A DNA stretch of 64,000 bases from a virus: IMG/VR virus record IMGVR_UViG_3300045988_162434, positions 1 through 64,000 of that record; one strand, written 5' to 3'. The position numbers and the translations under genes were made by a program. The notes under the pieces are model-generated. The model had not been told where the DNA came from, did no database searches, and worked only from the letters and a program-made list of their open reading frames with translations. This document shows, piece after piece, positions 42,675 to 49,617 of the stretch; position 1 is the stretch's first letter; each line of letters begins with the position of its first letter.

Positions 42675-42732
42675 CGGCGTTGCCCGGTGGTCAACGCCGC
42701 GACATTATACCACATTTTATGTGCTTTGTCAA
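42675..42732 (-). promoter_or_regulatory. sigma70 promoter (-35 TTGACA at 42727-42732, 17-bp spacer, extended -10 TGgTATAAT) with a GC hairpin at the transcription start site (TSS); cassette copy 1
   Basis: Reverse complement of plus-strand CATTATACCACA...TTTGTCAAG. The hairpin CGGCGTTG-cccggtggt-CAACGCCG at 42675-42699 begins about 5 nt after the -10. Confidence 0.6.
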
Positions 42733-42795
42733 GTAAAAAATAAAAAAAATAGAGGAAAATCCCTCATTCTTTAAGGAATTTTCCTCTAAAAACCT

Positions 42796-43188
42796 TTATT
42801 TCTTAGGTTTTCTCTGCTCAATTAAGTCGATTTTGAACTTGCGACCGTTGACTTCTAAAGAAATCAGCTTGTTTTCCTTAAGAATCTCAACCTTTTCGCC
42901 ATAAATACTTTGCAAATTGGTTAAAATATCATGAAAAACCGCCTTTTTTTCATCAGAGATTTTTACTGTCCTAGGCTTTGAATCCTTGCGCTTTTCCTGG
43001 GCGATTCCGTGGTCAACTCTCTGTCCTTTGGTTTTCTCTTCCAACTCGACAACCTCTTCCATTGTAAATCCTTCGGGACATTCTTCCAACTCTTCGCAAG
43101 GCTTATCCCACATTTCATGGCAAAGCATTTTCCCATTCTTACAGATAAGGTTTCCGCAATCTTCACACAACTTGATATTCATATTCAC
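42796..43188 (-). CDS. zinc-finger early protein
   Basis: 130 aa with CEDCGNLICKNGKMLCHEMWDKPCEELEECPEG. Confidence 0.3.
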   Translation of the reverse strand: MNMNIKLCEDCGNLICKNGKMLCHEMWDKPCEELEECPEGFTMEEVVELEEKTKGQRVDHGIAQEKRKDSKPRTVKISDEKKAVFHDILTNLQSIYGEKVEILKENKLISLEVNGRKFKIDLIEQRKPKK

Positions 43189-43296
43189 AACCCCTTTTCT
43201 TTTACTGTACTTATATTATATCACAAGAGGTTGAAAATGTCAACCTTTAATTGCGGTTTTCGGCGGGAGAACCCCACCGACCGCACATTGCTTTTA

Positions 43297-43695
43297 CTAA
43301 CCCTCAATACCCTCGGTATTAAGGGCGAAAGTCATTTTCTTACCATCTGGAATACGGCGAACAGGATATACCTTAGTAGCATCTCTGTTTTCATCCTTTG
43401 CTGGACCAGCAAGCTGAGTCATAAGTGCTACAATCTTGTTGAGTGAATACTCGCCATTAAAAGCGGTCATAATCTCTGTACAAGTCATAGGCTTAGAGTC
43501 CTCAAGTACATCAAGAATCTTCGCCTTGATTTCCTCGTTTGCGGTCTGATTCTTAGACGGCTTACGGTTAGCGTTCTTCTTCTCAAGGGTTGCAATCTCT
43601 CTTGCACAGAAGTCCTTGATGTCCTCGGACACACCCTCGATAGCCATAATCATTTCAAAATACTGCTTCTTTGTTGTCTTGTTTGTTGTTGTCAT
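43297..43695 (-). CDS. early protein of paralog family A
   Basis: 132 aa. Shares ANRKPSKNQTANEEIKAKIL...TCTEI...YSLNKIVALMTQL with 45853-46224. Confidence 0.35.
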   Translation of the reverse strand: MTTTNKTTKKQYFEMIMAIEGVSEDIKDFCAREIATLEKKNANRKPSKNQTANEEIKAKILDVLEDSKPMTCTEIMTAFNGEYSLNKIVALMTQLAGPAKDENRDATKVYPVRRIPDGKKMTFALNTEGIEG

Positions 43696-43980
43696 AAAAC
43701 ATACCCCTTTTCTTAATAAATTCTTAACTCTTTGTTACATATACATTATAACATATTTTATAAGGTTTGTCAAGCATTTTTTTATTATTTTCTTTTCGGT
43801 TTAGAACCTTTAATCTTCCTTGACCTTACATACTTATTATAACATATTTTTAAATGTTTGTCAATAGGTTTTTGAAAGTTTCAAAATTCGTTTTCCTCAC
43901 GACCGAGGTTGCTATTTTGTTTTCTTTCCTTACCTTGTAAATACATTATAACAAAATATTTATAGAAAATCAATATCGGA

Positions 43981-44029
43981 AAATTGCACAAAATTCGGGA
44001 TGCACAAGGTTAAAAAATTTGTGCAATTT
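43981..44029. repeat. operator-like inverted repeat AAATTGCACAAA...TTTGTGCAATTT flanking a CACAAAATTCGGGA core
   Basis: 12-bp perfect arms separated by 24 bp, immediately upstream of the plus-strand promoter -35 at 44035. Confidence 0.6.
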
Positions 44030-44034
44030 TCCTA

Positions 44035-44064
44035 TTGACAAATGCCAGAGCTATGTGGTATAAT
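44035..44064 (+). promoter_or_regulatory. plus-strand sigma70 promoter TTGACA-N17-TGgTATAAT (cassette copy 2)
   Basis: TTGACA at 44035-40 and TATAAT at 44059-64. The transcript would start at AGTTCGG and enter hairpin 44069-44093. Confidence 0.6.
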
Positions 44065-44068
44065 AGTT

Positions 44069-44093
44069 CGGCGAGCCCTGAGCGTGCTCGCCG
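44069..44093. ncRNA. GC-rich hairpin between convergent promoters (CGGCGAGC-cctgagcgt-GCTCGCCG)
   Basis: Homologous to hairpins at 42675, 45436, 47883 and 49562. Stems differ by compensatory changes. Confidence 0.5.
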
Positions 44094-44097
44094 CGAC

Positions 44098-44126
44098 ATT
44101 ATAGCATACTTTCTATTGTTTGTCAA
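44098..44126 (-). promoter_or_regulatory. minus-strand sigma70 promoter TTGACA-N17-TATAAT, convergent with the plus promoter at 44035
   Basis: Reverse complement of plus-strand ATTATA at 44098-44103 and TGTCAA at 44121-44126. Confidence 0.6.
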
Positions 44127-44135
44127 GTGTTTTAG

Positions 44136-44162
44136 ATAAAAAAAATAGGCATTTCTGCCTAT
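44136..44162 (-). terminator. intrinsic terminator of gene 44159-44350
   Basis: Hairpin AATAGGC-atttc-TGCCTATT preceded on the plus strand by an A8 run, which is a T-run on the minus strand. Confidence 0.55.
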
Positions 44163-44350
44163 TCTATATAAAAACAGTTTTCCATATTTCGGTATATCTT
44201 ATTAAGAATATTTGGATATTCGATGCCTTCACCGAGATAATCTTCTTCTATGTCTAACCTCTTAACTATTTTTTCTAAAACAAGATTAGCTTTTGTGAGA
44301 GTATCAATTTCTTCATTTGTTAAAATAAGTTCTTTTTTTATTTTTGCCAT
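44159..44350 (-). CDS. hypothetical small protein
   Basis: 63-aa ORF. Confidence 0.25.
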   Translation of the reverse strand: MAKIKKELILTNEEIDTLTKANLVLEKIVKRLDIEEDYLGEGIEYPNILNKIYRNMENCFYIE

Positions 44351-47832: not shown

Positions 47833-47848
47833 TTTTGAAAAATTAGTC

Positions 47849-47878
47849 TTGACAAACTGCGGCTACATGTGGTATAAT
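47849..47878 (+). promoter_or_regulatory. plus-strand promoter TTGACA-N18-TGgTATAAT (cassette copy 4)
   Basis: TTGACA at 47849-54 and TATAAT at 47873-78, followed by hairpin CGGCGCGCC-ccaaccgcaa-GCGCGCCG at 47883-47909. Confidence 0.6.
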
Positions 47879-47911
47879 ATTTCGGCGCGCCCCAACCGCA
47901 AGCGCGCCGCC

Positions 47912-47940
47912 ATTATATCGTATCAAAGGAACTTTGTCAA
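47912..47940 (-). promoter_or_regulatory. minus-strand promoter TTGACA-N17-TATAAT, convergent with 47849
   Basis: Reverse complement of ATTATA at 47912-17 and TGTCAA at 47935-40. Confidence 0.6.
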
Positions 47941-48115
47941 GTTTAATTTCAAAAAAAATAATGGTTAAAAACCATTATTTTTTAAGTCAATGATGAATTT
48001 TCTTAACTCGGCTATTGTTATACTAGGGTTTTTCTTAATGTAACCAAGAATCTTGTCACATGTTGCATCTTTTGATTTTTGATTAGCCTGTTCTTTAAGA
48101 TAATCAAAAGTATAA

Positions 48116-48478
48116 TCATAATTTCAACCCATCGTTGGTAAGCACCTCCTCAATTTTATTGCGTGCATTTGTTATGAGATTTGTTTCTTCAATCTCAAAA
48201 TCTCCATTAAAGAAATCATTGAATTTGCTAATATTCCATGTCTTAATTTCTTCTGGTTCGATTTCTAAAGCATAAAGAGGGTAACAGTAATCTTTTTCTC
48301 TATTCCAAATTTCAAAATCTTCTGTTATCCATTCCTTGTCAATAAGAAACTGAACTGCGCTTTCATAACTATCCGCTACTCCAAGTACACCATGATTATC
48401 TTCATGAATAATATAAACTTTCATTTCGTTTACCTCACTTTCTATATCTATTATATCATAGGGCTGACTACTTGTCAA
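48116..48478 (-). CDS. hypothetical early protein
   Basis: 120-aa ORF. Confidence 0.3.
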   Translation of the reverse strand: MTSSQPYDIIDIESEVNEMKVYIIHEDNHGVLGVADSYESAVQFLIDKEWITEDFEIWNREKDYCYPLYALEIEPEEIKTWNISKFNDFFNGDFEIEETNLITNARNKIEEVLTNDGLKL

Positions 48479-48800
48479 CCCTATTTTTCAAACTAGGATG
48501 TACTCTTCCAAACTGCTCAATCATGCACTGGCGCATAGGCGAAGCCGCAATCAAAGTCTTTGTTGCAATCTCCGGATTTACAAGAACAGCTCTATATTCT
48601 CCATGAATATCCTGTGCGGTTCTCTGTGCATGTTCGAGGGTTTTGCGTTTTGCAAACCCTACACGTCCTGGCTTTGTTACCTTATAAATAACTTCTCTCA
48701 TAATTATTACCCCTCTTTCTAATGAATAAATATTCCAATAATAATACAAATGAGTGTGATGCCTAATGGAATCCATAAAGGGGCAAAAACCCAAACCCAT
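48468..48800 (-). CDS. hypothetical early protein
   Basis: 110-aa ORF. Confidence 0.3.
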   Translation of the reverse strand: MGLGFCPFMDSIRHHTHLYYYWNIYSLERGVIIMREVIYKVTKPGRVGFAKRKTLEHAQRTAQDIHGEYRAVLVNPEIATKTLIAASPMRQCMIEQFGRVHPSLKNRVDK

Positions 48801-48949
48801 GATATTGAAATTACTTTTACCAACTTTAAAACCAAAAGAACAATAAACAATAAACCACTAAAACTAATTCCACCTTTTTCCATAATCTCTTACCTCTCTT
48901 TCATTTTCTATAATTATTGTACCATATTTAATGGCGTTTGTCAACACTT

Positions 48950-49243
48950 TTAATTAAAAAGACTTGCAATAGCAACAATAGACCAAAGTATGATACCTAT
49001 ACACATCGTAGCTAACCAAAAATACAAATTGATTTTGCAAATCAAATAATCTTCATCAAAAGGCATCGGCAGTCCTGCACATTCTGCGAAAATAGCATAT
49101 GCCACCATTAAAAAGAACCACCCACAAGAGAAAGCAATAACACATGCTCCACCAATTCCACAAAAACCTAAAAATGTCATATCTATCAACTTCCTTTCCT
49201 TACTTTCTATAATGATTATACCATGTTTAGGGGCATTTGTCAA
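48950..49243 (-). CDS. small membrane protein
   Basis: 97 aa with three hydrophobic helices. Confidence 0.3.
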   Translation of the reverse strand: MTNAPKHGIIIIESKERKLIDMTFLGFCGIGGACVIAFSCGWFFLMVAYAIFAECAGLPMPFDEDYLICKINLYFWLATMCIGIILWSIVAIASLFN

Positions 49244-49460
49244 CCCCTTATTTGATTTTTTTCAAAATAATTGCATTTCTGATATTTACCCATGTATCAG
49301 AATATGTACCAACATGTACGCCATTGTGGGTGACTGTCCAGCGATATCCATATCCAACTATCGTGTACCCCATGATTTCAAATACCATCATACTATCAAC
49401 CGCCCTTCCTTTATCTTATGTACTTATTATACAGTATAGAAGCCTATTTGTCAATAGGAG

Positions 49461-49507
49461 TTATCCACAAAGTTATCCACAATTTCGGGATAGTGAATTG
49501 TGGATAA
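49461..49507. repeat. three DnaA-box-like 9-mers (two direct TTATCCACA, one inverted TGTGGATAA) around an ATTTCGGGATAG core
   Basis: TTATCCACA at 49461-69 and 49473-81; TGTGGATAA at 49499-507. Immediately upstream of the plus promoter at 49526. Confidence 0.6.
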
Positions 49508-49525
49508 CTTTTTTGAAAATTAATC

Positions 49526-49555
49526 TTGACAAACCTGAGTCATGTGTGGTATAAT
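49526..49555 (+). promoter_or_regulatory. plus-strand promoter TTGACA-N18-TGgTATAAT (cassette copy 5)
   Basis: TTGACA at 49526-31 and TATAAT at 49550-55, followed by hairpin CGGACCGCG-gcgatggtg-CGCGGCCCG at 49562-49588. Confidence 0.6.
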
Positions 49556-49588
49556 ATTTCGGACCGCGGCGATGGTGCGCGGCCCGCC

Positions 49589-49617
49589 AGTATATCATAT
49601 TTCATTCAATTTGTCAA
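49589..49617 (-). promoter_or_regulatory. minus-strand promoter TTGACA-N17-TATACT, convergent with 49526
   Basis: Reverse complement of AGTATA at 49589-94 and TGTCAA at 49612-17. Confidence 0.55.

Follow-up and report, generated by a model that had tools for sequence, protein, structure and literature searches.

A recurrent module of a gene-less antisense promoter and a GC-rich hairpin at gene terminators of large uncultured gut phages: a possible operon-boundary device

What do strong promoters do that face each other across a hairpin, when one of the two has no gene to transcribe? The question is raised by a stretch of viral DNA of 64,000 nucleotides (nt) (positions 1 to 64,000 of the IMG/VR record IMGVR_UViG_3300045988_162434; hereafter, the window), which contains five cassettes with centres at 42687, 44081, 45449, 47896, and 49573. 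In four of these (cassettes 2–5), face-to-face consensus promoters of the sigma-70 type enclose a GC-rich hairpin. A preliminary description of the sequence gave the cassette positions and the four convergent promoter pairs, and these are present in the sequence as stated. The module conserved among related phages consists, in gene direction, of a sense terminator, an optional facing sense promoter (P2), the GC hairpin, a gene-less orphan promoter aimed at the terminator (Pas), two boxes, and the divergent sense promoter of the next gene (P1).

The minus strand of the window holds every credible gene between ~41.8 and 56.3 kb, and these genes have a conserved ribosome-binding leader in common; hence, the plus-strand promoters are antisense and gene-less. 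Within this region, no credible open reading frame (ORF) with a ribosome-binding site follows any of them, and the small ORFs in the cassettes were rejected, as none has such a site. The suggested parallel with pR/pL of coliphage 186, a choice between two gene sets, fails at this point, as the plus promoters drive no gene. Every cassette occupies non-coding DNA between genes and, in gene direction, comes right after the preceding gene's terminator. The -10 elements of the two promoters are separated by 33, 37, 33, and 33 nt in cassettes 2–5, respectively; the spacer of the plus promoter is N18 in cassettes 2, 4, and 5, and N17 in cassette 3, with an extended -10 of the TGTGGTATAAT type. The -10 elements, described initially as TATAAT, mostly are so, but the cassette 3 plus promoter and the cassette 5 minus promoter read TATACT. 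Cassette 1 indeed has the minus promoter only; it has no antisense promoter, and a remnant AATTTCGGGAT motif is seen at 42595–42605. The five cassettes are real, but their list was incomplete: further plus-strand orphan promoters at 52140–52169 and 52791–52820, as well as the boxes upstream, had been overlooked.

Between cassettes 3 and 4 sits a DEDDh exonuclease-like gene, which has over 7800 homologues in metagenomes of gut and rumen; its surroundings were compared in ~90 contigs (55–97% protein identity) from human gut, rumen, and deer samples. In most relatives examined, an orphan antisense promoter is found ~220–400 nt upstream of the exonuclease gene. A GC hairpin follows the -10 within 12 nt at 160 of 290 antisense consensus promoters vs. 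87 of 1111 sense promoters. Strong facing sense promoters are present in only 43 of these 160 antisense promoter-plus-hairpin units (~27%). Thus, the convergent arrangement is an optional addition and not the conserved unit. Where the -10 elements are 33–37 nt apart, mutual exclusion of the two promoters is to be expected from the known footprints of polymerase. A canonical sense terminator stands just before the hairpin in 119 of 151 non-redundant units, the median distance being 14 nt in units that lack P2 and 53 nt in those that have it, and in ~80% of units the terminator stem is 40–60 nt from the -10 of Pas. Of all sense terminators in these loci, 128 of 319 face an antisense promoter at most 130 nt away. 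In Pas, both the -35 and the -10 match the consensus, and the -10 is of the extended type (TGTG). Genomes carry 5–10 copies of the module, in a single orientation relative to the genes.

A generic promoter pattern retrieved the full module from IMG/VR contigs of 100–200 kb, and it is also present in a few contigs binned into metagenome-assembled genomes, mostly of Clostridia. Two reduced versions, without the TTGYRCAA boxes discussed below, are found in the cultured Enterococcus phage EF1 (L333, MF001358) at positions 18013 and 16061; both are antisense promoters in the early region, preceded by the motif TTTTGGGAT or TTTTAGGAT and followed by a start rich in GC.

The hairpins stand out in the window, whose GC content is ~33%: there are nine GC-rich perfect hairpins in 64 kb, four of which are those of the cassettes, and the rest terminator-like. 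The stems of cassettes 1–4 are perfect, with 8–9 base pairs (bp); the A.C mismatch in cassette 5 is variable among close relatives. RNA folding z-scores against dinucleotide shuffles range from -2.1 to -2.5 in cassettes 1–4, and the value for cassette 5 is -0.45. So as not to select for hairpins, promoters were also picked by a phased box alone (n = 267), and the region from +3 to +50 was folded. Downstream of these box-defined promoters, the GC content is 54% and folding yields -15.0 kcal/mol on average (shuffled, -10.4; median z, -1.9), whereas the values downstream of other consensus promoters are 36% and -5.0 kcal/mol (shuffled, -4.2; median z, ~0).

The box-defined promoters are followed by 136 different hairpins, among which 82 different 7-nt arms occur. 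In an alignment of 22 hairpins of 25 nt, 87.5% of cells are paired vs. 67.5% in shuffles, and double changes occur in 28 cells vs. 9.4 in shuffles, with none of 500 shuffles as high; sliding the register lowers pairing to 22–61%. The value of 87.5% is partly circular, because the sequences were picked as hairpins, while the shuffle and slide controls are not. Close orthologues of cassette 2 show one clean swap of A-T to T-A amid nearly identical promoters, and those of cassette 3 a C-to-U change yielding G.U. Hence, the structure of the hairpin, and not its sequence, is conserved, as had been proposed from the window alone. The variety of arms also rules out a mobile palindrome of the REP/MITE (repetitive extragenic palindromic/miniature inverted-repeat transposable element) type or a mimic of CRISPR repeats; a mobile palindrome is further disfavoured by the similar distance of the orphan promoter upstream of the exonuclease gene in most relatives.

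The stem starts 7–8 nt after the -10 with N17 spacers and 3–8 nt with N18 spacers, and is predicted to lie at or within a few nt of the 5' end of the RNA, with an overhang of 0–5 nt. Non-Watson–Crick pairs are nearly absent from the stems (5 G.U and 9 A.C in ~1560 pairs, vs. 1.8% G.U in terminators; the terminator control has 246 G.U and 172 A.C). These counts are too low to tell which RNA strand is selected, and fit either a need for pairing on both strands or simply maximal stability. The loops, of 3–26 nt, are unrelated in sequence, with no conserved loop or boxA-like sequence as in lambda nut or HK022 put. In the Rfam search of 42000–54500, only tRNAs reach the threshold, and the best other E-values are 0.36–0.62. 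None of the five window hairpins has a T-run on either strand or is called by the terminator scan, and in some relatives TTTTT follows the hairpin in the sense direction. A site for RNase III was rejected, as stems of 7–16 bp are too short for the requirements of the enzyme.

The box is a palindrome, TTGYRCAA, with A/T-rich flanks. Three plus promoters, those of cassettes 2 and 4 and the one at 52140, are preceded by pairs of TTGCACAA and TTGTGCAA boxes with a TTCGGGA motif in between. The gap between the proximal box and the -35 of Pas is 8–9 nt in 105 units and 18–19 nt in 56 units (18 nt in cassette 4); the spacing of the two boxes is 24, 34, or 43 nt; and the distal box lies mostly 8–10 or 16–19 nt upstream of the divergent sense promoter of the next gene. 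Since the distances change by one helical turn and the boxes occur in either orientation, they suggest a DNA-binding protein rather than an RNA structure. The palindromes are phased relative to both promoters, as in an operator-controlled divergent promoter pair. Among box-linked promoters, the antisense ones match the -35 consensus at 5.9 of 6 positions and the sense ones, with AT-rich leaders, at 4.6 of 6. The inverted pair TTGCACAA...TTGTGCAA was also considered as an RNA hairpin or sense terminator, and rejected: the boxes occur as direct repeats as well, the T-run is not conserved, each box is palindromic by itself (including TTGTACAA), and the spacing changes in 10-bp steps. These boxes are likelier sites for a phage regulator than the hairpin, for which this role had been suggested and whose sequence is too variable. 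Cassette 3 has no TTGYRCAA boxes. In cassette 5, their places are occupied by DnaA boxes, TTATCCACA at 49461 and 49473 (direct) and an inverted copy at 49499–49507, which are kept in two related loci, L003 and L015; outside this lineage, a DnaA box is found in 2 of 436 units.

Two proteins encoded between the cassettes are candidate box-binding regulators. The 123-amino-acid product of 45853–46224 (minus strand), with homologues in 15 of 31 related loci, has a confident structural model (pLDDT 84) with a C-terminal winged helix, whose best structural matches are repressors of the MecI, MarR, and ArsR types, with weak E-values. The product of 43297–43695 (minus strand) is its paralogue and belongs to the same PHROG (phrog_19455). 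Despite structural matches to Z-DNA-binding (Zalpha) domains, this identity was rejected for the 123-residue protein, because the alignment consensus lacks the Zalpha signature, namely the N..Y residues of the recognition helix and the PPxW wing; by its model, it is a generic winged helix.

The region looks like a classic early, host-takeover region of small orphan genes. Perfect TTGACA-N16–19-TATAAT matches number 38 in the window, vs. 0.18 expected by chance, and most of them, along with many terminators, fall within ~41.8–56.3 kb. A near-identity BLAST search of the region against deposited phages gave no match, and none of 20 early proteins had a Pfam match above the family threshold. The window has at least 21 tRNA genes and one ROOL RNA, and its portal-like protein is ~40% identical to the portal of phAss-1 and ~32% to portals of the 140-kb Enterococcus phages of the EF1 group; these features identify it as a part of a large uncultured gut phage. 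This phage probably infects Clostridia, to which the host of the phAss group has been tentatively assigned (PMC10607447).

We interpret the module as a factor-controlled operon-boundary device of the early region, with a probability of about 0.4. Host RNA polymerase at or leaving Pas would meet head-on the polymerases that leak through the upstream terminator, whose stem is predicted to lie ~33–53 nt from the Pas start site (the -10 lies 40–60 nt away), and the next gene would be insulated from upstream transcription. If P2 is wedged in, the predicted start sites are ~20 nt apart, and Pas and P2 would exclude each other by transcriptional interference, one of the roles suggested in the preliminary description; given the known footprints of polymerase, only one of the two would be occupied at once. 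A dimeric DNA-binding protein, for which the two paralogues above are candidates, would act at the boxes and balance Pas against P1. The hairpin, at the 5' end of the short Pas transcript and also of the P2 transcript, would protect these transcripts against decay that depends on the 5' end, and a role in pausing or positioning polymerase is possible as well. The further proposal that these are dedicated gene-less "collision promoters", forming a modular, protein-tunable insulator in which a structure-only hairpin does the positioning and protects the by-product RNA, is tentative and rather doubtful; if true, it would define a distinct class of operon-boundary elements, and those with an inserted sense promoter would also work as a bidirectional switch.

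Several points weigh against the boundary device. Some downstream genes have their own box-less consensus promoters (e.g., at 43864 and 43773), and so insulation is not needed for their early expression. The usefulness of a strong P2 facing an insulator is not obvious. How well a roadblock would work is uncertain, as elongating polymerases normally displace open complexes. Only about one-third of the facing terminators look bidirectional, hence many Pas transcripts may enter the upstream gene, which would favour an antisense RNA. The start sites and ends of the RNAs, and the activity of the promoters in the real host, are predicted from sequence, and the box-binding proteins are candidates.

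If the antisense RNA were itself the product, a short and very stable transcript with the GC hairpin at its 5' end and a terminator hairpin at its 3' end would pair with one of three partners (the upstream early mRNA at its 3' end, read-through transcripts, or the P2 transcript at its 5' hairpin) and direct duplex-dependent cleavage in the style of lambda oop. The hairpin is at the predicted 5' end; a T-run follows within 250 nt in 53 of 151 units, giving an estimated length of 60–120 nt; 33% of Pas-facing terminators have an A-run vs. 19% of others (p = 0.008); and the G.U pairs in units of the 52140 type work only in the antisense RNA. However, two-thirds of the units have no obvious terminator in the antisense direction, the overlap with coding sequence is minimal where termination does occur, the RNA body has no conserved sequence except the complements of the promoter and the terminator, and neither the tight terminator spacing nor the phased boxes are explained, so we regard an antisense RNA as unlikely. 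Alternatively, the hairpin could serve the sense strand, as a backup terminator or pause site for leaking transcription, with Pas merely overlapping its tail. It does lie 6–19 nt past the first terminator stem in ~80% of P2-less units, and many relatives have a T-containing tail on the sense side (GAAATTTCC, GTTTTTCC, TTTTT), but the tails in the window are GAACTATT or GAAATATT, and none of the five has a T-run by the scan criteria. Moreover, the distance from the hairpin to the Pas -10 (7–8 nt, N17) is tighter than that to the terminator, a neighbouring promoter reads into 83 of 143 such hairpins, and a P2 upstream of a terminator would be self-defeating, making a backup terminator improbable.

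The preliminary description had also offered a role of the hairpin as a 5' stabiliser of early mRNAs, here those from the facing sense promoter. The sense start is predicted at the stem base or a few nt inside it in cassettes 1–5, and the reference list of a review (PMC3997798) includes papers on such 5' stem-loops in Escherichia coli and Bacillus subtilis. This is a poor fit, and quite improbable: a facing promoter is present in only ~27% of units; no hairpin is seen at the promoters that do precede genes (P1 and over 30 others), and the leaders of next-gene promoters are AT-rich; and in cassettes 2 and 4 the next ORF is 250–400 nt off, behind further promoters. Least probable of all seems a role of the palindrome at the DNA level, as a cruciform or other site for a structure-specific protein, or as a transcription-primed (R-loop) replication origin, with cassette 5 tied to DnaA. 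The near-absence of G.U and A.C is as expected if the structure is needed on both strands, and the three perfect DnaA boxes of cassette 5, at 49461–49507, are kept in two relatives; still, these boxes are confined to one lineage, with rare exceptions, loops of 7–13 nt disfavour cruciform extrusion, the stems are too diverse for a sequence-specific binder, and the module occurs in 5–10 copies per genome in one orientation with respect to the genes.

Each part of the module, as interpreted here, has counterparts in known systems. In phages 186 (pR/pL) and P2 (Pe/Pc), each promoter reportedly drives a gene set, lytic or lysogenic, from start sites said to be ~60 bp apart. The cassettes likewise have face-to-face promoters close enough to interfere, with operators nearby, but one partner is gene-less, the start sites are ~20 bp apart, the facing promoter is optional, and the arrangement is repeated 5–10 times per genome, always with a 5' GC hairpin. 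The oop RNA of lambda is said to be a short single-copy antisense RNA against the 3' end of cII, with ~50 nt of coding overlap; similar to it, the promoter of a putative short non-coding RNA stands downstream of and opposite to an early gene, whereas here the overlap would be mostly with the terminator only, and there are many copies. The host-takeover module of SPO1 has numerous small early operons that carry a consensus promoter and a terminator apiece, and shares with this region the dense consensus sigma-A promoters, terminators, and small orphan genes of a large Firmicutes phage; we know of no description of orphan antisense promoters with GC hairpins or of phased boxes in SPO1. Lambda nut boxB and HK022 put, with conserved loops or a two-hairpin architecture, act on long operons. 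These, too, are RNA hairpins just downstream of early promoters, on both arms, but the loops of the cassettes are variable, and one of the transcripts has no operon.

The 5'-terminal stem-loop stabilisers, for which a review (PMC3997798) cites primary papers on E. coli and on the aprE leader of B. subtilis, resemble the transcripts predicted for the cassettes: a stable hairpin leaves hardly any unpaired RNA at the 5' end, and its sequence is free to vary. Those of ompA, papA, and aprE protect mRNAs, while here the hairpin would be common to two opposing transcripts, one of which is non-coding and antisense. In E. coli, programmed head-on collisions of polymerases, positioned by a stem-loop in the nascent RNA, prevent read-through at bidirectional terminators of convergent genes (Wang, Watters, Ju, and Liu, bioRxiv 10.1101/2022.10.23.513370). 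The device proposed here would similarly block read-through at a boundary by opposing polymerases, with a stem-loop fixing the meeting point, but the opposing polymerase would come from an orphan promoter ~40–50 nt from the terminator rather than from a convergent gene. We found no description of this promoter–hairpin arrangement in the literature. The parts (convergent promoters, 5' stem-loops, operators, and collision-assisted termination) are familiar; new, to our knowledge, is their combination, in which a dedicated promoter without a gene stands head-on, carries a hairpin conserved only in structure, and recurs at many operon boundaries throughout the phage family.

The coordinates of the features are collected in Table 1. 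The terminator at 47951–47984 was read by eye; the scan demands at least three GC pairs and hence makes no call there. In the unit at 52140–52169, a weaker, G.U-containing hairpin (loop GCAGACCAAG) replaces the GC hairpin, and the promoter at 52791–52820 is likewise followed by a weaker hairpin with G.U pairs. The terminator hairpin at 52863–52888 is called by the scan on the minus strand, and a stop on the plus strand is only possible. The loops at 52140–52230 and 52791–52888 (plus strand) both contain CAGACCA (GCAGACCAAG and CCAGACCATT), and similar sequences are seen in relatives. Identical promoters of 29 nt are found at 50305–50333 and 44098–44126 (both minus strand), and only that of cassette 2 has a hairpin. 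At 43745–43973 (minus strand), the gene starting at 43695 is preceded by three promoter-plus-leader units in tandem, between which there is no ORF, and the first leader resembles a decayed gene start.

Table 1. Features of the cassettes and related units, in window coordinates.
Feature	Position	Strand	Details
Cassette 1 GC hairpin	42675–42699		CGGCGTTG / CAACGCCG, 9-nt loop, folding z -2.08
Cassette 1 sense promoter	42704–42732	-	TTGACA-N17-TATAAT
Cassette 2 divergent sense promoter P1	43945–43973	-	TTGATT-N17-TATAAT, distal box 10 nt away
Cassette 2 operator region	43984–44026		Distal box TTGCACAA (43984–43991), then TTCGGGAT
Cassette 2 proximal box TTGTGCAA	44019–44026		Ends 8 nt upstream of -35
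Cassette 2 orphan antisense promoter	44035–44064	+	TTGACA-N18-TGTGGTATAAT, -10 TATAAT
Cassette 2 GC hairpin	44069–44093		CGGCGAGC / GCTCGCCG; orthologues CGGCGTGC / GCACGCCG
Cassette 2 facing sense promoter P2	44098–44126	-	N17, TATAAT, consensus
Intrinsic terminator of upstream gene (44159–44350)	44142–44165	-	Directly upstream of cassette 2 P2
Cassette 3 divergent sense promoter P1	45327–45355	-	Consensus; ATTTTGGGAT (45358–45367) adjoins -35
Cassette 3 orphan antisense promoter	45400–45428	+	N17, TATACT
Cassette 3 GC hairpin	45436–45462		CGGCGCGCC / GGCGCGCCG
Cassette 3 facing sense promoter P2	45466–45494	-	N17, TATAAT
Intrinsic terminator after tRNA-Trp unit	45515–45534	-	Upstream of cassette 3
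Cassette 4 boxes	47799–47830		TTGCACAA (47799–47806), TTGTGCAA (47823–47830), TTCGGGAG in between
Cassette 4 orphan antisense promoter	47849–47878	+	N18
Cassette 4 GC hairpin	47883–47909		CGGCGCGC / GCGCGCCG, 11-nt loop
Cassette 4 facing sense promoter P2	47912–47940	-	N17, TATAAT
AT-rich bidirectional-looking terminator	47951–47984		A-run, ATAATGGTT/AACCATTAT stem, T-run
Cassette 5 divergent sense promoter P1	49426–49454	-	Consensus
Cassette 5 box region	49461–49507		Three perfect DnaA boxes, TTTCGGGAT in between
Cassette 5 orphan antisense promoter	49526–49555	+	N18
Cassette 5 GC hairpin	49560–49586		CGGACCGCG / CGCGGCCCG, one A.C mismatch
Cassette 5 facing sense promoter P2	49589–49617	-	TATACT
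Extra module outside the region first described	52090–52169	+	Boxes at 52090 and 52124; orphan antisense promoter 52140–52169
Extra orphan antisense promoter	52791–52820	+	Reads ~45 nt into terminator hairpin 52863–52888

Several other features of the window are unusual. The ROOL RNA is full-length (275 bits; 24785–25385, minus strand) and lies within the phage tRNA cluster. A tRNA with the anticodon TTA, at 23226–23296 (minus strand), would read the UAA stop codon and suggests stop-codon recoding; TAG is recoded in the distant relative phAss-1 (PMC10607447). Next to tRNA-Trp, Rfam gives a 137-nt tRNA match (45 bits) at 45650–45786 (minus strand) that is not called by ARAGORN and may be an intron-containing or degenerate tRNA. 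An 830-amino-acid protein encoded at 1331–3823 (minus strand) has the Major Vault Protein shoulder and Vault_3 repeat domains, unusual for a phage, and a Thg1-like tRNA-His guanylyltransferase is encoded at 54655–55545 (minus strand), where the early region has its upstream end. Close to the transition from early to structural genes, the motif CTCTCCAAAAGTTATTTT is repeated at ~54180–54215, as it is at ~3330–3400 of locus L003.

The phage family is very abundant, and the module marks 40% of the detectable early terminators in the loci examined. If insulation by collision is true, these phages build dedicated devices from a mechanism known only between real convergent genes, and the module would offer a compact, sequence-flexible insulator or switch part for synthetic biology. 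An experimental entry point is provided by the cultured Enterococcus phages of the EF1 group, which have the module in reduced form. The boxes define a putative regulon, with a candidate regulator, for the timing of early expression in uncultured phages of Clostridia.

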